Part shown: piece by piece, positions 1 to 39,605 of the stretch
Layout of the letters: every line of letters starts with the position of its first letter
Position numbering within the stretch: position 1 is the stretch's first letter
IMG/VR virus record: IMGVR_UViG_2671181134_000016
Length of the DNA stretch: 40,220 nucleotides
Direction: 5' to 3' (one strand)
Source: a virus
Taxonomy: Duplodnaviria > Heunggongvirae > Uroviricota > Caudoviricetes
Notes under the pieces: model-generated
Told to the model about the DNA's origin: nothing
Database searches by the model: none
What the model saw: the letters and a program-made list of their open reading frames with translations, nothing else
Made by a program: the position numbers and the translations under genes

Positions 1-567
1 ATGATCGAAAAAATTCTTGCAACTCCTGAGTTAACTGCTTTACTTCGTGATGAAGTCGAAGAAAATAATGTGTTTGTCAAATTGGATGCTGATTTTTATC
101 AGGATAACGGAAAACTAGATTGCCAAAAAATAATCAATCTTTCTGTGGATTCATATTATAATTCGCTTCGGTTGCCTATTACACCTCCTTCACCAGATAA
201 TATTTTAGTTATTAAGCGAGGGGATAATCGTTTTGCACTTTACATAATTGAGTTGAAGAATGTTGCAAAAGTTTCCCGATTAGATGAAGAAAATATACGA
301 TGCAAGTATAAGACAGCAGTAGACGATTTCATGCAAGAGCGTTTTTCTGATAGTTTTTTAAAAGAAGATGTGAAAATTACTGATTTTAATATATGGATTG
401 TATGTAATAGATTCTCTTTTTTAGGGAAAGAACTTACTGATGAACAGTATGCAAAAAAAGTAATTAATAATGGGGTTATGGAAAAGTTACTACTATCCAA
501 ACCTTATAGGTTTAGAGGTAAAATATCTCCTATAACTTTCCAGTTAAGTGGCTCTGAAGTGTGTTAA
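1..567 (+). CDS. Hypothetical cargo protein between prophage end and int; possible PD-(D/E)xK nuclease-like motif (PDNILVI ... IIELK). May be N-terminally truncated by the window edge.
   Basis: 188-codon ORF, AT-rich relative to phage core genes; D...ELK spacing reminiscent of restriction-endonuclease-like fold; no family recognised. Confidence 0.5.
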   Translation: MIEKILATPELTALLRDEVEENNVFVKLDADFYQDNGKLDCQKIINLSVDSYYNSLRLPITPPSPDNILVIKRGDNRFALYIIELKNVAKVSRLDEENIRCKYKTAVDDFMQERFSDSFLKEDVKITDFNIWIVCNRFSFLGKELTDEQYAKKVINNGVMEKLLLSKPYRFRGKISPITFQLSGSEVC

Positions 568-570
568 AAA

Positions 571-597
571 GTGAGGGGGAGTTTTCCCCCTCATTTT
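571..597. terminator. Bidirectional rho-independent terminator between the convergent cargo ORF and int
   Basis: Perfect hairpin GAGGGGGA-gttt-TCCCCCTC flanked by an A-run upstream and T-run downstream; overlaps the int stop codon. Confidence 0.6.
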
Positions 598-1721
598 AAT
601 TCTAACTTATTCCAATCTTTTCCCCTGTCATCATGGTAACGATCGGTTTGCTGCTGGGTTTTATGGCCCAGCAGTTTTCTGGTATCTATCCCTTGCTCCT
701 TGTAAAGGCGTTCAGATAAAGATCTTTGTTCATGAAAAGTTGCTGGAGTTCCAGTACCCCAATCAATTTTTGCCAGATCACGCGCCTTGCTAAAGTTCAT
801 CGTTAGTGTATTAGCTTTTACCTGTGCGCCACGTTCAGCCTGTGAGGTTGTGCGAAAAAAATGTACAAGATATGGACTGACAGCATAGTCACGGCAGCGG
901 GCTACTACATCTCGCAAACTCCAGTTAATCGCATTGAGACGCAGGGAAAGCGGGATGGCGATTTTGCTCCCAGTTTTTTCCTGGATGACATGGAGATGAT
1001 CATCCCAAATATCGCTAAATTTCATACGCGAGATATCACCTAACCTCTGACCGGTAACCAGTGCTGACAGCATGGCATTCCCCATATAACGATGACTGGC
1101 ATCTGCGATATCAAAGATTTTTTGCCATTCTTCAAGGCTTAACCGTTGTCGGGTAATTTTTCTTCTGGGCTGTTTGGTCGCTAATGCTGGATTATAGCCA
1201 GGAGGGACCTCCCCATAGTGTTGTGCCTCCTTGAATACATCAATTAGAACGGAGCGGACTACTTGCGCCATCCTCGGTTGCCCAGCAGTGATATACTCGT
1301 CAAGCAATTGTGCTATATCCCTTACATCAACGGATGAAATTAACTTCATTCCTGCTCGTTCCCTGAGCAAGGATACTGGTTTGGCTTTCTGTTTATAGGT
1401 GTTGAGCTTTATATCGCCACTTTTCAGTCTGTCATCCTGGATTGCTTGATAGCGATCTAACCAGGTTGACGTTGTGATTGCTTTTCCTTTGCTGGTTGCG
1501 ATCCTGTCACTGATAGCCAGAATCTGCCGGGTTCTTTGCTCAGCCAGGCGTGTATTGGCCTCAGTGGCAATAGCAATGGCTTCAGCTTCGTTTGTGCCCA
1601 AAGAATGAAACTTCCCGGTCACTGGATGCTTATATCGCCAATAGACTTTATTTACTTTTCTGCTATAGAGCGGATATAAGTTCGGGACTGAAACATTATT
1701 TTTACGTGGTCTGGCTGCCAT
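591..1721 (-). CDS. int: Lambda-family tyrosine integrase
   Basis: 376 aa; alignable by eye to lambda Int (WLDRYQ..., C-terminal LGHK...RYHDDRGKDWNKLELK versus lambda LGHKSDTMASQYRDDRGREWDKIEIK); ATG at 1721. Confidence 0.95.
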   Translation of the reverse strand: MAARPRKNNVSVPNLYPLYSRKVNKVYWRYKHPVTGKFHSLGTNEAEAIAIATEANTRLAEQRTRQILAISDRIATSKGKAITTSTWLDRYQAIQDDRLKSGDIKLNTYKQKAKPVSLLRERAGMKLISSVDVRDIAQLLDEYITAGQPRMAQVVRSVLIDVFKEAQHYGEVPPGYNPALATKQPRRKITRQRLSLEEWQKIFDIADASHRYMGNAMLSALVTGQRLGDISRMKFSDIWDDHLHVIQEKTGSKIAIPLSLRLNAINWSLRDVVARCRDYAVSPYLVHFFRTTSQAERGAQVKANTLTMNFSKARDLAKIDWGTGTPATFHEQRSLSERLYKEQGIDTRKLLGHKTQQQTDRYHDDRGKDWNKLELK

Positions 1722-1947
1722 TACTTAAAATCCTTTGTAGAATAATAGAATCACTTTTCTTGATGACAGGAGTAACTAATTCCCCAACTAACTCTGCGTC
1801 CTCACGCACTCGCCATAGTCGACCTTGTTTCATTGCCGGTGGACAAAATAAATTCTGCTTAGCATAACGACGCAATGTGGACACACTTGGAGGATTACTT
1901 CTGTATTTTTCCGTAGCCCATTCCTCAAGTGTCAGCATTTGAAGCAT
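1702..1947 (-). CDS. xis: Excisionase (Xis); start probably ATG at 1947 or 1938 rather than the track start at 1962
   Basis: MLTLEEW...PPSVSTLRRYAKQNLFCPPAMKQGRLW resembles lambda Xis (MYLTLQEW...VRRWVRECRIFPPPVKDGREY); overlaps the int start as in lambda; GAGG upstream of the 1947 ATG. Confidence 0.8.
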   Translation of the reverse strand: MLQMLTLEEWATEKYRSNPPSVSTLRRYAKQNLFCPPAMKQGRLWRVREDAELVGELVTPVIKKSDSIILQRILSNGSQTT

Positions 1948-1990
1948 TTTTGATAACCTCATTTCTTTTGCTACAAAACTATTTCACTAG

Positions 1991-2667: not shown

Positions 2668-3492
2668 TCAGGCGTTGAAAGTACCAATAAAGGTTTTTAC
2701 TTTGCTGTCTTTGAATTTTTCAACAAGCAGATCACGAAATTCGTTAGCCATTTCTTCCTGCACTGCTTCCAGCTGAATAATGCGCAGAACCAGTACAGGG
2801 CGATCACCAGTGATAATGCTGAGTCGTAATTTAAACGGACGTTCTTTCAGGCCTTCAAACGGAACGCATTTAAATTCAAATGCCACTGGCATAATGTCTT
2901 TGGTCTTCGCTTCGACAGACTCCATCAGGGAGCGTTTGCCGCTGAAGTCATTGTCTTCAAAATCAGCAGTCTGGTTCGCTTCAATTGTGATTTTACGGAT
3001 CGCTGCAGCCGCTTTGGTTGCCTGAATGGCGTCACCATTAGCATCAAAGCCCACAAGGTAGTCGGCCCAGTCTTCAATCCATTCTGCCAGTGATTTCTGG
3101 GAGTTACGCTCGCCGTTAACAGACAACAGGGCAGAGAACGGTGCTGTCTTTTTCAGTTTGAGAGTGGCGGTGTTATCTGCGTGACCTGGTTCATCAATAG
3201 TACCCAGGTTAAGCACACTGACGGCACGCATATTATCAGCATCGATAAAGCAGCGGGTGCCTTCATCTGCAAGATCTTTAGAATAACGGGTAAAGTCATC
3301 GATGCTGGCAGTGGAAAGCGCACCACGGAAACGGAAGCGATTTAAATTAAATTTTTCCAGATCATGAATGCGGAAATTCTCAGGCAATGCCACAGCATCG
3401 GCACCAATCTTACTGATAATTTCATTAACACCCTGAGCAGAAATAAGGGCATGGATTTGATTAATTGCGGTTGCGTCTAAGTTCTGAGACAT
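2668..3492 (-). CDS. YfdQ-like protein (DUF2303-type prophage protein)
   Basis: 274 aa; GAGGA Shine-Dalgarno before the ATG at 3492; length and position match remembered yfdQ of CPS-53-type prophages. Confidence 0.65.
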
Positions 3493-6567: not shown

Positions 6568-7509
6568 ATGAGCACTAAATTAACCGGCTATGTATGGGAT
6601 GGTTGCGCTGCGTCAGGCATGAAATTATCCAGCGTGGCAATTATGGCCCGCCTGGCTGATTTCAGTAATGACGAAGGTGTGTGCTGGCCATCAATTGAAA
6701 CTATTGCCCGTCAGATTGGCGCGGGGATGAGTACCGTCAGAACGGCTATCGCACGGCTGGAAGTAGAAGGCTGGTTAACGCGTAAGGCGCGTCGCCAGGG
6801 TAACCGCAATGCGTCGAATGTTTATCAGCTTAACGTTGCGAAGCTTCAGGCAGCGGCATTTTCTCAACTGTCAGATTCTGACCCGTCAAAATCTGACGCA
6901 TCAAAATCTGACCCGTCAAAATTTGATGCGTCGAAATCTGGCAAAAAAGCGGGTTTTCACCCGTCAGAATCTGGCGGGGATCCGTCAGTAAAATCAAAAC
7001 ATGATCCGTCAGATAAAAAACCTTCTCGTCCGGACGCTTCGCAACCGGACACGCAGACGGCTGAACAGGATTTTTTAACTCGCCATCCTGATGCGGTTGT
7101 ATTCAGCCCTAAAAAGCGCCAGTGGGGGACGCAGGATGATTTGACCTGCGCACAGTGGCTCTGGAAAAAAATCATCGCCCTGTACGAGCAGGCTGCCGAA
7201 TGTGACGGCGAGGTGGTTCGTCCCAAAGAACCGAACTGGACAGCCTGGGCAAACGAAATTCGCCTGATGTGTGTGCAGGATGGTCGTACTCACAAACAAA
7301 TCTGCGAGATGTACAGCCGCGTCAGCCGCGATCCGTTCTGGTGCCGTAACGTGCTCAGCCCGTCGAAGCTGCGGGAAAAATGGGATGAGCTTTCCCTGCG
7401 CTTATCGCCGTCCGTCAGCACGTACACCGAAAAACGCGAAGACCCGTACTTCAAAGCCAGTTACGACAACGTGGACTACAGCCAGATCCCGGCAGGATTC
7501 AGGGGGTGA
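6568..7509 (+). CDS. Replication initiation protein (O-like, N-terminal winged-helix domain) with an internal iteron-encoded acidic/serine repeat linker
   Basis: N-terminal HTH-like replication-protein segment; internal SDSDPSKSDASKSDPSKFDASKS repeats encoded by DNA iterons; AGAGG before the ATG. Confidence 0.75.
   Translation: MSTKLTGYVWDGCAASGMKLSSVAIMARLADFSNDEGVCWPSIETIARQIGAGMSTVRTAIARLEVEGWLTRKARRQGNRNASNVYQLNVAKLQAAAFSQLSDSDPSKSDASKSDPSKFDASKSGKKAGFHPSESGGDPSVKSKHDPSDKKPSRPDASQPDTQTAEQDFLTRHPDAVVFSPKKRQWGTQDDLTCAQWLWKKIIALYEQAAECDGEVVRPKEPNWTAWANEIRLMCVQDGRTHKQICEMYSRVSRDPFWCRNVLSPSKLREKWDELSLRLSPSVSTYTEKREDPYFKASYDNVDYSQIPAGFRG
6871..7015. repeat. Iteron array (putative origin of replication) inside the replication initiator gene, followed by an A-rich stretch
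   Basis: At least 6 direct repeats of the form CCGTCA(A/G)AATCTG / GCATCAAAATCTG, then aaaatcaaaacatgatccgtcagataaaaaa. Confidence 0.6.
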
Positions 7510-11544: not shown

Positions 11545-11550
11545 GGCTTA
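11532..11550. terminator. Hairpin at the convergent junction of Q and the reverse cassette (putative bidirectional terminator)
   Basis: TAAGCCC-ctgta-GGGCTTA, overlapping both stop codons; no clean T-run. Confidence 0.4.
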
Positions 11551-12132
11551 ATAATTCATATGAATTCTGTTTCCGAGATAATATAATCCAAAGAAAGTTG
11601 ATACTAAGAGTTGCCAAACGAGGAAAGTAAATACAACAGTATAAACCATTAAAACAATACTGTTTTGATAGACATTGATTAATGGTGAAAATATAGCATT
11701 AAGTATTATTATAACAATGCTTAATGCTGTTAAAAAAGAGAATAGCATGCAAAGAAATAAGCGTCTGGTCAGAACCTCCTCTGAATTTACTACTTTTCCA
11801 TTTTCTTTTGTTACTTTTATTTCAATAGAGGCATTTCTTTCATTGCTAATCAATGGTAAATCAATCTCAGCTCTATTGAAAGTTGCTATGGCGGCCAGAG
11901 CGGCAATATAAAACCCTGGTAGGTTAGAGATAAATGAAACGATTGATTTAATGAAACCATTGTCATCAAATAAATCTTTGACAGGGATTTTTAATAGAAT
12001 GAAAAGTACTGCTGTGATAGAAGTAAGTAGAATTGGTGCTACCCAATCATATGCAGCTTTGCCGCTAATACCTTTAATAAAAAGATATCCAAACGGCTTG
12101 CCTAGATGAGAGAAAACTGAAAGTATTGGCAT
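11548..12132 (-). CDS. Cassette gene C: 4-TM integral membrane protein of unknown family
   Basis: 194 aa with four hydrophobic spans; GAGG before ATG at 12132; AT-rich; last gene of a three-gene operon. Confidence 0.7.
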   Translation of the reverse strand: MPILSVFSHLGKPFGYLFIKGISGKAAYDWVAPILLTSITAVLFILLKIPVKDLFDDNGFIKSIVSFISNLPGFYIAALAAIATFNRAEIDLPLISNERNASIEIKVTKENGKVVNSEEVLTRRLFLCMLFSFLTALSIVIIILNAIFSPLINVYQNSIVLMVYTVVFTFLVWQLLVSTFFGLYYLGNRIHMNY

Positions 12133-12139
12133 AATAACC

Positions 12140-12559
12140 TCACATCAAATCTATCATTTTCACAACAAACTCTAGTTCAATTTTAACATATGAATCCTTC
12201 AGGCGCGAATTAAAGTTATCGATAATGCTTTTCTTAATAAATGTTTTTTCTAAATTATTAAGATTGATGTTTGAGGTTTTGAAATCAACCTGCCTTGGTT
12301 TATTTGTTTCAGGATCTTGGAATTTAACCTTTAATTTATCATAACCACCATTCATTTTTTTATTGAAATGAGATGCTACATTTTTAATCCATCCAATAAC
12401 ATTGTCACCATGATTTGGAAGTAATTTTAATGTACTTTCAGTCGGAATGTAAGGTGAATTAACATCAGGAGCATTAATTGTTCCGAATTGATCCTTGACT
12501 AATATGACATCTGATAATCCTTTTTGGCTTATTTTATTAAAAAGCTCCTTGTCTAACAT
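12140..12559 (-). CDS. Cassette gene B: soluble protein of unknown family
   Basis: 139 aa; ATG overlaps stop of gene A (ATGTTAG), indicating translational coupling. Confidence 0.65.
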   Translation of the reverse strand: MLDKELFNKISQKGLSDVILVKDQFGTINAPDVNSPYIPTESTLKLLPNHGDNVIGWIKNVASHFNKKMNGGYDKLKVKFQDPETNKPRQVDFKTSNINLNNLEKTFIKKSIIDNFNSRLKDSYVKIELEFVVKMIDLM

Positions 12560-13161
12560 TCCTGTAAATTCAAATATTGGTTTGTATCGTATTTTACTTC
12601 TTTTTTTGATGTTGCAGAAATAACGTTAGTTGGATGTTTTGCGGTAAATAAGTCTTCATTGTCTTTCGCCACTTCAAAGAGAATTTTGTCTAAAAAACTA
12701 TTTAACCGGGCCGTAGATACACCTGGGGTAGATGTACAAATCATATCATAGGTTCTTTTATTTCCATTTAATGATATGACAACATAGGTAGAAACTTCAT
12801 AGCCTTCACCTTGTTCATATTTTGGTTGGATTTCAACGCGTTCATTAGTATTTGTATTTTTTACAACGGTAGTACTTCCATTTTTATCAACACTATTAAT
12901 AAGAAGGACAATATGCGTGGGTGAGTTATCTGGAAGTAAAGGATAAAGTTGTACATCTTGGAGAGTAACTACAATATTCCCAGAATCATATGAATGAACG
13001 AGTCCCTTTTGTTTAACAATCAATGGGGCAAGCATGTACATTTCCGGAACAGGACATATACACTGGGCTTTTACCTCTTGTGTTGCCTTGGTTCTAAACT
13101 TTGTGTCAATGGTCAGACTATGATGAGTAACGAGTCTTTCGCTAGCATTTAATTTTGCCAT
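12553..13161 (-). CDS. Cassette gene A: soluble beta-rich protein of unknown family
   Basis: 202 aa; ATG at 13161; AT-rich; first gene of the reverse-oriented operon inserted between Q and the late operon. Confidence 0.65.
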   Translation of the reverse strand: MAKLNASERLVTHHSLTIDTKFRTKATQEVKAQCICPVPEMYMLAPLIVKQKGLVHSYDSGNIVVTLQDVQLYPLLPDNSPTHIVLLINSVDKNGSTTVVKNTNTNERVEIQPKYEQGEGYEVSTYVVISLNGNKRTYDMICTSTPGVSTARLNSFLDKILFEVAKDNEDLFTAKHPTNVISATSKKEVKYDTNQYLNLQEC

Positions 13162-16763: not shown

Positions 16764-18493
16764 GCCGGAAATCTTACCCTAACGTAAATGCTGCCAATCA
16801 GTATGCCCGGGATGTCGTGCGCGGGAAGATTGTGGCCTGCCAGTTTGTGATTCAGGCCTGCCAGCGCCATCTTGATGACCTGATGGCGGAAAAAAGTAAG
16901 TCGTTTCGTTACCGCTTCGACAAGGACCTGGCTGAACGGGCCGCCAAATTTATTCAGCTGTTGCCGCACACCAAGGGTGAGTGGGCATTCAAGAGGATGC
17001 CCATCACGCTGGAGCCGTGGCAGCTATTTGTGATCTGCTGTGCGTTTGGCTGGGTCAATAAAGGCACCCGGTTGCGCCGCTTCCGGGAGGTGTATACCGA
17101 AATTCCCCGTAAGAACGGCAAATCGGCAATCTCTGCCGGTGTTGCCCTGTATTGTTTTGCCTGTGATAACGAGTTCGGCGCGGAAGTGTATTCCGGTGCC
17201 ACGACGGAGAAACAGGCATGGGAAGTCTTTCGTCCGGCACGACTGATGTGTAAACGCACACCCATGCTGACGGAAGCGTTCGGGATTGAGGTTAACGCCT
17301 CAAACATGAACCGTCCGGAGGATGGCGCGCGGTTTGAACCGCTGATCGGTAACCCCGGTGATGGATCATCACCCCACTGTGCGGTGGTGGATGAATATCA
17401 CGAGCACGCCACCGATGCGCTTTACACCACGATGCTTACCGGGATGGGGGCGCGACGTCAGCCACTGATGTGGGCCATTACTACTGCCGGGTACAACATT
17501 GAGGGGCCGTGCTACGACAAACGGCGGGAAGTTATCGAGATGCTCAACGGTTCGGTACCCAACGATGAACTGTTCGGGATCATCTATACCGTTGACGAAG
17601 GTGACGACTGGACCAACCCACAGGTGCTGGAAAAAGCCAACCCGAATATCGGGGTGTCGGTTTACCGTGAGTTTTTGTTAAGTCAGCAACAGCGTGCGAA
17701 AAATAACGCCCGTCTGGCAAACGTCTTTAAAACAAAACACCTCAATATCTGGGTGTCGGCGCGTTCGGCGTATTTCAACCTGGTGAGCTGGCAGAGCTGC
17801 GAGGATAAATCACTGACTCTTGAGCAATTCGAGGGGCAGCCGTGCATTCTGGCCTTTGACCTGGCGCGTAAACTGGATATGAACAGCATGGCGCGACTTT
17901 ATACCCGCGAGATTGACGGTAAAACGCATTACTACAGTGTGGCCCCGCGTTTCTGGGTACCGTATGACACGGTGTACAGCGTCGAGAAAAATGAAGATCG
18001 CCGCACAGCCGAACGCTTTCAGAAATGGGTGGAAATGGGCGTCCTGACCGTTACCGATGGTGCAGAGGTGGATTATCGCTACATCCTCGAAGAGGCCAAA
18101 GCGGCGAACAAAATCAGCCCGGTCAGCGAGTCACCCATCGACCCCTTCGGGGCGACCGGGCTGTCACATGACCTTGCTGATGAAGACCTGAATCCCGTCA
18201 CTATCTTCCAGAACTTCACCAATATGTCCGATCCGATGAAAGAGCTGGAAGCAGCGATTGAATCGGGACGTTTTCATCATGACGGCAATCCCATCATGAC
18301 CTGGTGTATCGGCAACGTGGTCGGCAAAAACATGCCGGGTAACGATGATGTGGTGAAGCCCGTCAAGGAGCAGGCGGAAAACAAAATTGACGGTGCAGTT
18401 GCGCTGATTATGGCGGTTGGCAGAGCCATGCTGTACGAGAAAGAAGACACGCTGTCTGACCACATTGAGTCCTATGGGATCCGCTCGCTTTAA
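16760..18493 (+). CDS. Terminase large subunit
   Basis: 577 aa with ATPase and nuclease-type segments; coupled to the small subunit stop. Confidence 0.9.
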
Positions 18494-28087: not shown

Positions 28088-28534
28088 TTACTGTGCGAAC
28101 ACGCAATTTCGGCCTGATGGGGAGCCGACAATTCTGGACATTTTTTCGCAAATAACAGTTACTTGTTCTCCTTTTTTAAGAGCAGCAGCTGTTGATTTTT
28201 CAGAGTCTTGCATCTCCATTCTTGCTGGCATGAATTCATTTTCAGTTCTGAATTTAATAATTATAGAGTCAGTAAAGTCCTTATCAATGGATTGTACGAT
28301 ACCTCTAACGGCGATTAATTTACCTTTTAACTGTTCATCGGTAGCGACTTCATTTTCTTCATACTCTTTAAACAGCTGTCGAGCAGTAGTGTTGTAGATT
28401 TCTTTTTGCGGTGCCGCAGCTTCCGTATCGGATGAGTATGAAGAATTAGAGCCTTTATCGTTATTGCCTGCAAAATATCCAATAATCACCAACCCGATGA
28501 AAATATATAAAATCCATTTTAATAATTTCTTCAT
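28088..28534 (-). CDS. Moron: N-terminally membrane-anchored protein with OB-fold-like (tRNA_anti-like) C-terminal domain
   Basis: MKKLLKWILYIFIGLVIIGYFAG signal-anchor; AT-rich; opposite strand inside the tail operon. Confidence 0.6.
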   Translation of the reverse strand: MKKLLKWILYIFIGLVIIGYFAGNNDKGSNSSYSSDTEAAAPQKEIYNTTARQLFKEYEENEVATDEQLKGKLIAVRGIVQSIDKDFTDSIIIKFRTENEFMPARMEMQDSEKSTAAALKKGEQVTVICEKMSRIVGSPSGRNCVFAQ

Positions 28535-33645: not shown

Positions 33646-34308
33646 ATGCATCGTATAGACACGAAAACCGCGCAGAAGGATAAGTTCGGCGCGGGTAAGA
33701 ACGGTTTTACCCGTGGTAACCCCCAGACTGGCACACCTGCCACCGATCTGGATGATGACTACTTTGATATGTTGCAGGAAGAACTCTGCAGCGTGGTGGA
33801 GGCATCCGGTGCCAGCCTGGAGAAGGGGCGAAACGACCAGTTGCTTACCGCGCTTCGTGCTCTGCTGTTAAGCCGCAAGAATCCGTTTGGTGATATCAAA
33901 TCGGATGGCACGGTGAAAACGGCTCTCGAAAACCTTGGTTTGGGAGAAGCGGCAAGACGGGGGGTGGGAACAGGGGAAAATCAGATACCGGACATGGCTT
34001 CATTTAGTGGGGTGAGGGATTATTACGGAAAACAACTTTTGCCAGGAGGGTTGATACTTCAGTGGCTGACGATTCCATCAAGTGCAGCAGCTAAAGCTGT
34101 AACACTGAATAATGGTAATTATCAGCTGTCAGGCTATAAATGGCCCCAGTCATTTGGTGTCCTGTTTGCTGTGTTTGCCACAAAAGTTTCTGGCTCGACT
34201 AACGAAGCATATGCAATCTCAGTTAATCGTCACTCTACCGATGTAATTGTCACCTGGAATGCCCGTAAGGCTGATGATGTCCACATTTTAGGAATTGGGA
34301 AATTATGA
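33646..34308 (+). CDS. Tail fibre protein: constant N-terminal part (to about 33948) fused to the currently expressed variable C-terminal part
   Basis: GGAG Shine-Dalgarno; the inversion crossover site lies inside the gene at codons 97-101. Confidence 0.8.
33935..33949. repeat. Left inversion crossover site (TTGGTTTGGGAGAAG)
   Basis: Perfect 15-bp inverted repeat with the right site; embedded in the tail fibre gene. Confidence 0.65.
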
Positions 34309-35298: not shown

Positions 35299-35783
35299 TA
35301 TGCAGCCCTCACAATATAGTTAAAAGCGACATTTCGTGGGCGTGTTTCATTCGCACCTGCAGGTTTAGTCGTTGCCGCAACAACACCACCCTCTGTAATA
35401 GCCGGGTTGGGAATTGGGTAATTATCGAAGTCAATGGCTGGAGACAGGGGCGTGATTTGTTTTAAAATCGTGGTGCCTGTAAAACTTCCCAGAGTCTGGT
35501 CGTTAGTTCGTGAAGTCCAGATTCCCCAATAGTGGTTATGACTGACAATCGCACCGTCCTGAAGCGTTAATAATCCCCTTCCGTTATCCACTCCACGTCC
35601 GTCATCCCAGCCACGAATAAACTCACCGCGTAAATCAGGTAATTTATTTGTCGGATAAGCCTTTGCCAGTTCCGGGTATTCTTCAGCAGAAAAAGCTGCT
35701 CCGTTGCATTTCAGCCAGCCTGTTGGCGGAGTGGCTGAAGGCCACGGAACAGGCACACCAACGGGTAATGCTGAGCCTTCTCC
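35298..35783 (-). CDS. Alternative tail-fibre variable C-terminal segment (Sv'), lacking its own start; fused to the constant part upon inversion
   Basis: The frame continues from the crossover repeat (GLGE) with no ATG; the track's 'M' at 35786 is a TTG. Confidence 0.7.
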   Translation of the reverse strand, partial: GEGSALPVGVPVPWPSATPPTGWLKCNGAAFSAEEYPELAKAYPTNKLPDLRGEFIRGWDDGRGVDNGRGLLTLQDGAIVSHNHYWGIWTSRTNDQTLGSFTGTTILKQITPLSPAIDFDNYPIPNPAITEGGVVAATTKPAGANETRPRNVAFNYIVRAA

Positions 35784-35791
35784 CAAACCAA
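35777..35791. repeat. Right inversion crossover site (reverse complement of TTGGTTTGGGAGAAG)
   Basis: Inverted copy immediately upstream of the invertase gene. Confidence 0.65.
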
Positions 35792-35857
35792 CCTTTTAGA
35801 AAATGCAGTTGTTTCGTTCAGGTGGCATGATTCCGGCTTTTTACAGGGCTATTTATC

Positions 35858-36406
35858 ATGCTTATCGGCTATGTACGCGTGTCAACAAATGACCAGAACA
35901 CGGCATTGCAGCGAAACGCGCTGGATTGCGTAGGATGTGAACTGATATTCGAAGATAAGATCAGCGGCAGAAGTCTGACAGACCGGGACTGAAGAAGGTG
36001 CTCAGGACGCTATCAGAAGGCGATACGCTGGTGGTCTGGAAACCGGATCGTCTCGGTCGCAGCATGCGGCATCTTGTCGTTCTGGTGGAGGATACGGGAA
36101 AGAGGGATTAACTTTCGCAGCCTGACCGACAGCATAGACACATCTTCGCCAATGGGGCGTTTTTTCTTTCACGTTATGGGCGCTCTGGCTGAAATGGAGC
36201 GAGAACTGATTGTCGAACGCACTAGGGCGGGCCTTGCCGCGGCTCGTGAAGAAGGGCGGATCGGTGGGCGTCGTCCAAGGCTAACAGATGAGCAATGGGT
36301 GCAGGCAGGAAGATTGATAGCTGCTGGGGAATCACGGCAGCGCATAGCGATCATCTATGATGTTGGCGTATCGACGCTGTATAAAAAATTCCCGGTTAAT
36401 TGTTAA
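35858..36406 (+). pseudogene. pin: Pin/Gin/Hin-family serine DNA invertase disrupted by two compensating frameshifts (-1 near 35969-35977, +1 near 36091-36094)
   Basis: N-terminus MLIGYVRVSTNDQNT and C-terminus RERGINFRSLTDSIDTSSPMGRFFFHVMGALAEMERELI are in the same frame; the middle (DRPGLKKVLRTLSEGDTLVVWKPDRLGRSM) is in another frame; stop at 35990 in the start frame. Confidence 0.8.
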
Positions 36407-36590: not shown

Positions 36591-36720
36591 TGGGGAATTT
36601 TGGTCGCACGAGAGAATTTGAACCTCCGCCCCCTGACACCCCATGACAACAAGCAATAATATGTATAACATGGGTTTTTACATGACATATAATAAATTAA
36701 TTTTTGTAAAGGGAAATCTT

Positions 36721-37681
36721 ATGGATTCAAGAAGATATTTGCATACTGTAATATTAATTGCTGGTATAGTATTTATATGTATATTGGTTATATACTTAAT
36801 TTATCCAAAGGTGATATTTACTATCAGTGATAACTATTTAAATCCATTGGTTTTAATAGCGATGGTTTTGTCGTTTTCCTCAGTAGTGCTGTTATTTATA
36901 AAGTATTTAAATAAGGATATTGGCAATGATCATTCTAAAAAAGAAACAGCACAGAATTATGCCATTGAACTGAAGAAAGAACTAGAAAGAATAAATGGGA
37001 GACTTGAGGCAATAGATAGGCCCATTGCTGGAAAATCCAGTGATATCATACTAAGTGATGCGGAGAGAGCAGATTTTATTGAAAGGGCGAAAAAGAAAAT
37101 TGCAGGTGAAATGATAATTAATGCATCAGAAAGTTTAAAAAAAGAGATGCAACACATTAAAGAACAGTTAAGTATTAATGAGCATTATGAAGATATGGTT
37201 TACAGAATCAAAAAAGAAATAGATAGACTTAACAGGCGAGGTGGAGCTAACCTTGGCATTGGTGCTTCAATCGCTTTTTTTGGAATAGCGTATCTGGGTT
37301 ATGTTGTTTCAAAACAAACTGTCACGACCGATGTAATTAATTATCTGATTCATATGTTACCTCGAATTTCTTTTGTATTAGTTATAGAGGTTTTTGCATA
37401 TTTTTTTTCTAAAGTTATATAAAAATGGTTTTGATGAGGTAAAATATTTTCAAAATGAATTGACAAATATTGAGGCAAAAGTATTGGCCATTAAATTTTT
37501 AAAAGATGTTAAAAATGAAGATTTAATGGCTGAAGTTATAAAAAATCTAATGACAACAGAGAGGAATTTTATATTATCAAAAGGACAGACGACTGTGGCA
37601 TTAGAAAAAGAAAAAATCAAGGGGCTTGAAGATAAAAATGCTTTATCTATTATAAAGGAGTTAATTAAGTTAAAAAGTTAG
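36721..37681 (+). pseudogene. AT-rich membrane / coiled-coil protein of unknown family, interrupted by a +1 frame change in a T8 homopolymer (37401-37408)
   Basis: ATG at 36721 with AAGGGA upstream; 2 TM + coiled coil + 2 TM; deleting one T in the T8 run joins both ORFs into about 320 codons. Confidence 0.5.
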
Positions 37682-37985
37682 CGGGGATATTAAGTGAGGT
37701 TGGTTGTACGTTGCAGGTGCTTGTGCATCTGCATTTAAATAATGAGGTTTAATTAAACAGCACGTGAATAATAAAATAAATAGGCTGTTTAATTTTTTTA
37801 ATAGGGAGGGAAGGTAGCTCATGATTTTTACTGGGTAGGTGATATAGCTTATTGTAGTATCGTTCATGCTTGTTGAACTTAAGGTTTGATACTCCGCCAT
37901 ATATACCGGTCCGCTGAGAATGTAAGATACAAAAGTCTTTTATAGTATCAAGTTATACTTCACGAGCAAAATATGAGGAGTGTTT

Positions 37986-38198
37986 ATGAAGGGAAGAACC
38001 ATTGCTGACTATGCAAAGTTAGCGCAAGAATCTGCCAAACGTAACGTATTAAGAACTGAGTTTAGTGAGTATCTCAAGGTAAATGGCCTGGAGAGGAGTG
38101 AAGAGAATGCTCATACTTTTGCCTTTGGGAAAACAAACAATCATGACGATAGAGTTAATCTTGTACATATGCTGATGTCAGGTGTATGGGGTGGCTAA
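37986..38198 (+). CDS. Small hypothetical protein (70 aa)
   Basis: ATG at 37986 with GAGGAG Shine-Dalgarno 5 nt upstream. Confidence 0.4.
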   Translation: MKGRTIADYAKLAQESAKRNVLRTEFSEYLKVNGLERSEENAHTFAFGKTNNHDDRVNLVHMLMSGVWGG

Positions 38199-38529
38199 AT
38201 CATCATTAAGGCTGGAAAATTTTCACCAATGAAGGTTGCTGTTTTCTGTAAGCTTTTGAGGGTACAGCAATGAGAATTATGAAGTATTGGAGAAAAATAA
38301 ATTCAACTAATTGATTACACTATATAAAATGCATGATTTAAATTCTCTCTTTAGAGTGAACCTACTGAATAGTGTTAGCTGTCGATTTTGACCAAAAAAG
38401 GGTTATCAAAACCCAAAAACATATATTGATAATCAGTGGGTTAGGGGAATGCCGATAGTCAGTTGGTTAAGTGTGAATTGGTGGAATTATACTTACATAT
38501 CAAATTGTTGGTATTAGTCTTTCTAAATA

Positions 38530-38694
38530 ATGTTACGCCATATGGGCTGGACTGAAGCCGCAGACCTGATTGTTAAAGGTATGGAAGGCGCAATCAATGC
38601 GAAGACCGTAACCTATGACTTCGAGCGTCTGATGGAAGGCGCTAAACTGCTGAAATGTTCAGAATTTGGTGACGCGATCATCAAGAACATGTAA
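38530..38694 (+). pseudogene. icd: 3' fragment of isocitrate dehydrogenase gene (icdC-like attachment-site remnant)
   Basis: Encodes [54 protein letters not shown], the remembered C-terminus of E. coli Icd; in-frame stop immediately upstream shows it is a detached fragment. Confidence 0.85.
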
Positions 38695-38717
38695 TCACTA
38701 CATGTGTTTAATATTGC

Positions 38718-38745
38718 AACGGGCGTATAACACGCCCGTTGTTTT
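38718..38745 (+). terminator. icd rho-independent terminator
   Basis: AACGGGCGT-ataac-ACGCCCGTT followed by gtttt. Confidence 0.7.
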
Positions 38746-38796
38746 ATTTATGTAGGTATTATTAATAGCATATCGAGCATATTTATATAAAACCCT

Positions 38797-39120
38797 TTAC
38801 TTGAGCCCATATGGGCATATTTTTATAATGCAACTATTATGCAAACATTTATTTGTTATTTTGCTTTCTCCTGGAGGACACTCTTGACTGCTTTTGAGTA
38901 GACTCCATAAATCCTTGTTGAATGGTGCGATGTTATAAATAGTAATAGGATATTCTTTATCTTTAAGGATAATTCCAGATTTAACCGGTGTAAATATACT
39001 GCCAGGAGGGAGAAATATAGTAGATTGATACCAGATGATCATTTTCATATTACCCCATATGGCTGAAAAAGATATGCCGCATGAAGGTTGAATTATCGTG
39101 TCAATTACTATCCACTTCAT
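38797..39120 (-). CDS. iraM: IraM-like anti-adaptor protein (host gene)
   Basis: 107 aa starting MKWIVIDT..., matching remembered E. coli IraM; expected position after icdC. Confidence 0.7.
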
Positions 39121-39577
39121 TTGTTATGTCTTATCCCACGGTATTTAATATAGTTCATTTGGATGTTCATTTCTTTATTTTGCATATGAGTATATTACCC
39201 CTTCAAAAAATAAATTAATTAAAACGATTGCTTATATAAAACAAAATTTAAAGCAAGGAATCTCAATGGATGTTAAACAAAATGAGATTTAGTGAAAACA
39301 ATAAATTATTCACTTCGTTTTAGATTTGTTTAGCTATAATGTTATACATTCAAATGACTGAACATCCTGTAATTAAAACATAGCCTTTATGCTACTTTGT
39401 GCCAATTTGCTAAACATTATGGTTGCCTTTTTATATAACGATAATAATGAATGTAAGCATGACATGAGAATAAGGTTTCAATTTTTGAGTTATATAGGAA
39501 AGGTTTAACCTGTTCCTGGCTAAAATACATATAACTGGATGATGACTAAACCAAAACACATGTGCGTTAAGTATTGA

Positions 39578-39605
39578 AACGGGCGTATGGCACACCCGTT
39601 GTTTT
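39578..39605 (+). repeat. Second, diverged copy of the icd-terminator hairpin element
   Basis: catgtgcgttaagtattgaAACGGGcgtatggcacaCCCGTTgttttt, about 85% identical to 38701-38750. Confidence 0.5.

Follow-up and report, generated by a model that had tools for sequence, protein, structure and literature searches.

That e14 and phage 21 integrate into icd and bring along a replacement 3′ end for the gene has been known since the late 1980s. The mechanism was reportedly described for both elements by Brody and Hill in 1988, Hill et al. in 1989, and Wang et al. in 1997. The last of these are also said to have found that attB is common to 21 and e14 whereas their specificities differ, that attP measures approximately 370-420 bp, and that Int and Xis of 21 and e14 are not efficiently interchangeable. 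The icd integration mechanism of both elements has been summarised since (PMC6379469, PMC13626634, PMC12803456). Phage 21 (OL657228) belongs with the lambda-like siphoviruses that integrate in icd. The Sf phages (SfV, SfI, SfII, and SfIV), which infect Shigella and convert its serotype, differ by integrating at tRNA-thrW and by having a different integrase and gtr O-antigen genes (PMC3636060). The closest relative of SfI was described as a prophage of E. coli S88, a full-length 'e14' (Sun et al. 2013, PMC3636060).

The window—the whole stretch of 40,220 nucleotides that was analysed—carries a junction of the e14 type at the right end of its phage part. Positions 38530-38750 are almost certainly the attR of a temperate prophage of 40.4 kb that has inserted itself into E. 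coli icd at the 3′ end of the gene. The e14-type integration of the original prediction thus stands: icd residues 363-416 lie at attR, a full icd lies at attL, an empty site is available for comparison, and int and xis are of the e14 type. The junction is a textbook icd integration scar, already known and nothing new in kind. It fixes the right end of the prophage at 38529/38530 and places iraM outside of it; beyond correct annotation, its significance is small. The features are collected in Table 1.

Table 1. Positions of the prophage, its recombination genes, and the elements of the right junction in the window
Feature	Position	Strand or arm	Evidence and remarks
Prophage portion inside the window	1-38529		40,381-bp prophage; lambdoid early region, HK97-type head, Mu-type contractile tail
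intE-type tyrosine integrase	591-1721	-	PF09003 arm-binding (E 2e-37) and PF00589 catalytic domains
xisE-type excisionase	1702-1947	-	PF07825; 93.8% amino acid identity to K-12 XisE
Invertible tail-fibre segment	33926-35800		24-nt inverted repeats 33926-33949 and 35777-35800
pin-type DNA invertase pseudogene	35858-36394	+	tblastn with K-12 PinE
Phage-derived non-coding P arm of attR	38199-38529		attP reconstruction, motif comparison
Candidate integrase arm-type site GGTTATCAAAAC	38401-38412	P arm	Repetition and positional conservation
In-frame TAA, phage side	38524-38526	+	Read from the sequence
icdC, detached native icd 3′ end, host-derived half of attR	38530-38694	+	Icd residues 363-416 plus stop
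attL/attR/attB all-identical block holding the strand exchange	38530-38600		Three-way alignment
Native icd intrinsic terminator: 11-bp stem, 5-nt loop, T-rich tail	38716-38750	+	Hairpin prediction, RNA folding
iraM, first host gene right of attR, outside the prophage	38797-39120	-	97% amino acid identity to K-12 IraM

Detached icd 3′ end and the left junction

The right end of the prophage, distal to int, features the last approximately 54 codons of icd together with a terminator, identical to the unoccupied alleles. The open reading frame consists of 54 codons plus TAA—hence the 55 codons that had been read as the C-terminus of isocitrate dehydrogenase. Its product matches positions 363-416 of 416 of the NCBIfam NADP-isocitrate dehydrogenase model end to end (E 5e-25) as well as the last 48 positions of Pfam Iso_dh (301-348 of 348, E 1.5e-6, above the gathering score), and it is 96% identical to the product of the icdC pseudogene of K-12. 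In four single-copy strains, the 3′ end of the intact icd is 100% identical to the fragment. The frame ahead of it reads TAA ATA ATG; the in-frame stop that was expected immediately upstream exists but is not adjacent, since a single sense codon, ATA, separates it from the ATG. No Shine-Dalgarno-like sequence precedes this ATG, as judged by direct inspection, and the open reading frame is, hence, a gene fragment and unlikely to be a gene. The 54-codon frame should be treated as a pseudogene fragment and should not be annotated as a gene. A further candidate, an intact gene to which the fragment would belong, is ruled out by the in-frame stop and by the sequence comparison, which found no icd similarity left of 38527.

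The terminator reported after the fragment is borne out by a G+C-rich hairpin at 38716-38742, 21 bases past the fragment stop, which is followed by a T-rich tail and has the layout of a Rho-independent terminator. The RNA fold has an energy of -27.3 kcal/mol (z = -6.2), and none of 200 shuffled sequences was equally stable. The same terminator sequence occurs in the empty-site strain 2012EL-2448. A Rfam gathering scan and ARAGORN yielded no RNA family and no tRNA in the whole window; hence, no known sRNA or tRNA is involved at the junction.

The attL and the full icd lie outside of the window and were taken from the complete genome of E. coli STEC17-183 (NZ_CP075652.1), which matches all 40,220 nt at 99.985% identity and differs at six positions, namely five substitutions and one indel. 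Leftward of the window, a full-length icd (416 aa) is present in this genome and terminates 1,688 bp left of window position 1, as the reading of the fragment as an attR had implied. Its 3′ end is slightly divergent and of phage type, and is followed by a terminator of its own; over its last 166 nt, this icd shares 95.9% identity with window 38530-38695. Measured from one homology start to the other, the prophage is 40,381 bp long, and its left end lies outside of the window, 1,852 bp from position 1. The RefSeq gene order of STEC17-183 begins with rluE, icd, an AAA-family ATPase, a 188-aa hypothetical protein (window 1-567), intE, and xisE. It continues with a lambdoid early region, lysis genes, HNH/terminase/portal/protease/capsid, a contractile tail, and tail fibres, and ends with a frameshifted recombinase, three hypothetical genes, a partial icd, iraM, ymgK, ymgL, ycgX, and bluR. 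RefSeq thus already annotates intE, xisE, and the fragment pseudogene in this genome, the last as 'isocitrate/isopropylmalate family dehydrogenase, incomplete, missing N-terminus'.

Prophage body and its integrity

The head is of the HK97 type and comprises a two-domain TerL, a portal (PF04860), an S78 prohead protease, and a PF05065 capsid protein, as judged by Pfam; the module also holds a P27-type TerS with the TerL and an HNH protein. The tail is of the contractile Mu type and features, again by Pfam, a sheath, a tube, DNA_circ_N (DNA circularisation), a Mu GpP-like hub, and Baseplate_J. Both parts of the predicted virion are, hence, in place. The repressor is cI-like with an S24/UmuD-like C-terminus, which makes SOS induction of the prophage plausible.

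The prophage had been called intact. By sequence, the essential phage genes are free of visible damage and may be functional, but pin is a pseudogene, and two accessory genes are frameshifted. The noted resemblance to pin is real, as the sequence aligns to residues 1-180 of K-12 PinE, but the window copy is out of frame and carries a stop between approximately 35969 and 36080. What remains as an open reading frame is the C-terminal Resolvase and HTH_7 part, and RefSeq notes the gene as 'frameshifted'. The invertible segment next to it contains matches to tail-fibre and assembly genes. In contrast to a working Pin/Gin/Cin switch, where an intact serine invertase lies beside inverted crossover sites, the repeats are kept here while the invertase is broken. 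Since the invertase is frameshifted with an internal stop, the tail-fibre and host-range switch is probably frozen in its present orientation.

The second damaged gene is cargo near attR (36643-37681, +; GC approximately 32%) and occupies the slot of mcrA in K-12 e14. It is split by a frameshift near 37394-37422 into open reading frames of 259 and 95 aa, which match parts 62-242 and 238-329 of the 331 positions of phrog_5157, a phage family of unknown function. The last open reading frame ahead of the P arm of attR encodes 72 aa (37980-38198, +), for which Pfam, PADLOC, PHROGs, and NCBIfam gave no match; full coverage of the right-end stretch around it is seen in only 4 of 5,426 complete E. 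coli genomes. The third damaged gene belongs to a low-GC pair (32-39%) at 11548-13161 (-), in the moron slot between Q and holin, that matches the PADLOC candidate system PDC-M53 (B with E 2e-54, A with E 2e-32). A 1-nt deletion at 12591, found in the window only and not in STEC17-183, splits the PDC-M53A-like gene into open reading frames of 202 and 139 aa. A Sie-like gene of 148 aa (28088-28534, -) matches the superinfection-exclusion family phrog_8545 (E 1.5e-49); it lies on the opposite strand, flanked by the tape-measure and DNA-circularisation genes, and is an OB-fold protein in RefSeq. At the other end, the cargo between attL and int pairs a 507-aa AAA_15 ATPase, encoded just beyond the left edge of the window (extracted-locus coordinates 43064-44587), with the 188-aa protein encoded on the + strand. 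The best PADLOC matches of the ATPase are AriA, PD-T4-4_A, and NsnB. The 188-aa protein was matched by nothing in Pfam, PADLOC, PHROGs, NCBIfam, or the PDB sequences but shows, by eye, a PD(65-66)...E84-L-K86 motif resembling PD-(D/E)xK nucleases. The two proteins may form an undescribed ATPase-plus-nuclease defence pair.

These lesions bear on the one alternative of some weight, namely that the prophage is functionally not intact, grounded like K-12 e14 and yielding no infectious particles, so that the attR scar flanks a defective element. The pin pseudogene, the split phrog_5157 gene, and the deletion in the PDC-M53A-like gene speak for it, but all three defects are confined to accessory genes. 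Integrase, excisionase, the S24-type cI repressor, an O-like replication protein, Q, and the lysis genes are open, as are HNH, TerS/TerL, portal, protease, capsid, sheath, tube, tape measure, baseplate, and fibre genes. In addition, the structural region is 97% identical to and contiguous with those of the propagated phages SfI and SfV (PMC3636060), and the att sites are undamaged. A grounded prophage is, hence, rather unlikely, although it deserves to be taken seriously.

Integrase, strand exchange, and the iraM flank

The integrase of the window is of the lambda type with an arm-binding domain and lies with its excisionase adjacent to attL. It belongs to the e14 clade, with 94.9% amino acid identity to K-12 IntE against 59% to phage 21 Int; together with the identity of the excisionase (Table 1), this confirms the resemblance to e14 int/xis that had been noted. 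The attP was reconstructed by joining the left side of attR to the right side of attL. In this attP, the P arm holds a single copy of the motif GGTTATCAAAA, 127 bp to the left of the core, and the P′ arm holds three tandem copies just past the terminator that the phage brings along. K-12 e14 has the motif at the same positions, although the flanking sequence has diverged. The 9-mer at the heart of the motif, GTTATCAAA, occurs six times in the 49-kb locus, as opposed to 0.41 expected, and three of the six lie in the arms. Repetition and positional conservation mark the GGTTATCAAAA copies as candidate arm-type sites. One further exact copy of GTTATCAAA is found at 1949-1957 (-), directly upstream of the xis start codon, where it may bind Int for regulation or may have arisen by chance. 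The record of vB_EcoM-689R6 was considered as an isolated phage with a true attP and rejected; it is a prophage extraction with host flanks (mnmA-icd) and, hence, provides another attL.

The 166-nt fragment is common in the species. Among the complete E. coli genomes, it was found at 7,317 places in 5,421 genomes with up to four copies per genome, and, on these counts, approximately one-third of the genomes have at least one extra copy. Multiple copies indicate that tandem occupancy exists, and a P-arm stretch of approximately 157 nt left of the fragment recurs in many genomes with other elements. Both facts would suit a fragment left behind by an earlier, different icd-targeting element, with the present prophage having arrived independently, in tandem or as a replacement. 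However, STEC17-183 holds only two copies, and these bracket exactly one prophage with one e14-type int/xis pair, while the same arm-site motif is found in both arms. Such a relic is very improbable.

The 2012EL-2448 genome is one of the four with a single copy of the 166 nt, which is 100% identical and located inside an intact icd. Since this icd runs straight into the same terminator and iraM, the site is empty and represents attB. In the three-way alignment, attB equals attL leftward and as far as window-equivalent 38600, and equals attR from 38530 rightward, through the terminator and past 38900. Across mnmA-icd, STEC17-183 and 2012EL-2448 differ by six mismatches in 2,666 nt, all of them inside the phage-replaced segment (38601, 38607, 38625, 38664, 38683, and 38685). 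Four are synonymous, and two alter one codon from AAG to GAA, turning IIKNM into IIENM. The terminator past the stop codon is a different one in attL and is shared with K-12 e14 and vB_EcoM-689R6. This comparison identifies the fragment of the window and everything rightward of it as the native icd 3′ end and the attL copy as supplied by the phage, in line with the replacement 3′ end that had been anticipated at the other junction. The 166-nt fragment is present in 30 phage records; 28 of these belong to Escherichia phages, phage 21 among them. A copy of this kind in attP is a feature of this phage group, but a reversal of the junction roles, with the window fragment being the phage-borne copy, is scarcely credible, given that the fragment and at least 200 nt downstream, with the host-type terminator and iraM, are identical to the unoccupied icd locus and that the attL copy bears the substitutions and the terminator of e14 and vB_EcoM-689R6.

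With the fragment as the native 3′ end of the host gene, the alignment of phage-borne and host-borne icd ends, proposed for delimiting the core, confines the strand exchange to 71 nt, 38530-38600. By analogy to K-12 e14, the crossover probably falls within the first 11 nt, 38530-38540 (ATGTTACGCCA). In K-12, attL and attR are identical for the first 11 nt of the homology and differ for the first time at the 12th nt, and e14 excision changes this 12th nt (K-12 position 1196220) to the icdC base (PMC13626634, Table 1 therein). The 11-nt segment varies by strain, as seen from a comparison of the window with K-12 extracted-locus positions 1710-1720 and 16914-16924: it is ATGTTACGCCA in the window and in 2012EL-2448 and ATGCTGCGCCA in K-12 and vB_EcoM-689R6. 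The two versions differ by two synonymous changes in Leu codons, and the attL and attR versions match within each lysogen. This polymorphism might constrain the pairing of phage variant and icd allele.

Integration would proceed as follows. The attP would carry its own copy of the last approximately 166 nt of icd plus a terminator, and the integrase would be directed by the putative arm-type sites, one approximately 127 bp left of the core and three past the phage-borne terminator. Strands would be exchanged at the very start of the icd homology—within the identical block and probably within its first 11 nt. The outcome is seen in the comparison of the junctions: the body of the host icd has received the phage 3′ end at attL, so that Icd remains full-length with one K-to-E and four synonymous changes. 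The original 54 codons of the host and their terminator are stranded at the right end of the prophage, promoterless and devoid of a ribosome-binding site. Int plus Xis should reverse integration and restore the native allele.

The right-hand 2.3 kb of the window match every complete E. coli genome but are fully covered in only four. The iraM gene has been described as 'on the e14 prophage' (PMC4045071). This placement is imprecise; iraM follows the intact icd in 2012EL-2448 and, hence, lies outside of the prophage. A second copy of the host icd terminator is found 860 nt downstream (39563-39605, 84% identical over 43 nt to 38703-38745), so that iraM and ymgK are enclosed by a terminator copy on either side. 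K-12 has this second copy as well, with three mismatches (extracted K-12 locus 17966-17993). Ahead of the second copy, icd coding homology was not detected, with a Smith-Waterman score of 10 against 8.8 ± 1.3 for shuffled sequences and 124 of 500 shuffles being as good. IraM matches the phage family phrog_4407 (E 4e-52), and an IraM homologue of E. albertii (extracted locus 3001-3336) lies in a lambdoid late region, where its neighbours are a holin, a phrog_143 protein, and a methyltransferase of phage type. The bracketing terminators, the phrog_4407 match, and the E. albertii context suggest, but do not prove, an origin of iraM from an older element at this site. That the low-GC iraM-ymgK segment is the fossil of such an element, inserted at the icd 3′ end, is a doubtful idea. 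If true, IraM, the anti-adaptor of RssB, would have been domesticated from a prophage moron, and icd would have served for integration repeatedly, layer upon layer.

Comparison with e14, phage 21, and the Sf phages

The e14 element of K-12 uses the same attB in icd and is likewise followed by a 54-codon icdC pseudogene and then by iraM-ymgK-ymgL-ycgX. The candidate arm-site motif, too, is the same. Eight collinear blocks of homology with 80-96% nucleotide identity connect e14 to the prophage: int/xis (87%); a short ymfH-region block (83%); ymfL-ymfM-oweE (96.5%); the 3′ half of the terminase, ymfR, and the 5′ end of the portal (96.4%); the 3′ end of baseplate-J, ymfQ, and stfP (95.8%); tfa (87%); stfE/pin (80%); and the last 157 nt of the P arm with the host flank (96%). 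The collinearity of the blocks points to K-12 e14 as a deletion derivative of an SfV/SfI-like phage of the type of this 40.4-kb prophage. At 15.2 kb, e14 has lost most replication, head, and tail genes via fusing deletions (oweE::aaaE, beeE::jayE), whereas the 40.4-kb element of the window has all of them; the prediction of a fuller relative of the defective e14 is, hence, well founded. Such a full-length counterpart provides a handy reference for reconstructing the e14 deletions. Further differences concern PinE, which is intact in K-12 and broken in the window element, and the identical attL/attR block, which measures 11 nt in K-12 and 71 nt in the window element. The cargo differs at both ends: by attL, K-12 carries ymfD/ymfE/lit and the window element the AAA_15 ATPase and the 188-aa open reading frame; by attR, K-12 carries mcrA and the window element the split phrog_5157 gene and the 72-aa open reading frame.

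Phage 21 shares attB and features an attP of the same layout, with an arm site approximately 130 bp left, a 165-nt icd fragment, a terminator, three tandem arm sites, int, and xis. In contrast, its arm dodecamer is YYTTCCCCAAAA (annotated P1P2P3), as opposed to GGTTATCAAAA in the window element. A shared layout with differing dodecamers fits the reported combination of a common attB with different specificity. Int is just 59% identical, and the virion genes of phage 21 are of the lambda-like siphovirus type.

Nucleotide identities of 94-98% over long stretches of the early, head, and tail regions connect the window element to SfV, SfI, SfII, and SfIV and to two predicted prophages, vB_EcoM-689R6 and 720R4. 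The vB_EcoM-689R6 prophage also resides at icd with int/xis of the e14 type, but its cargo between icd and int consists of a DUF262 protein and a hypothetical protein. The attL-proximal slot is, hence, filled differently in K-12, in vB_EcoM-689R6, and in the window element, and the two att-proximal slots show the swapping of accessory, probably anti-phage, genes at the prophage ends.
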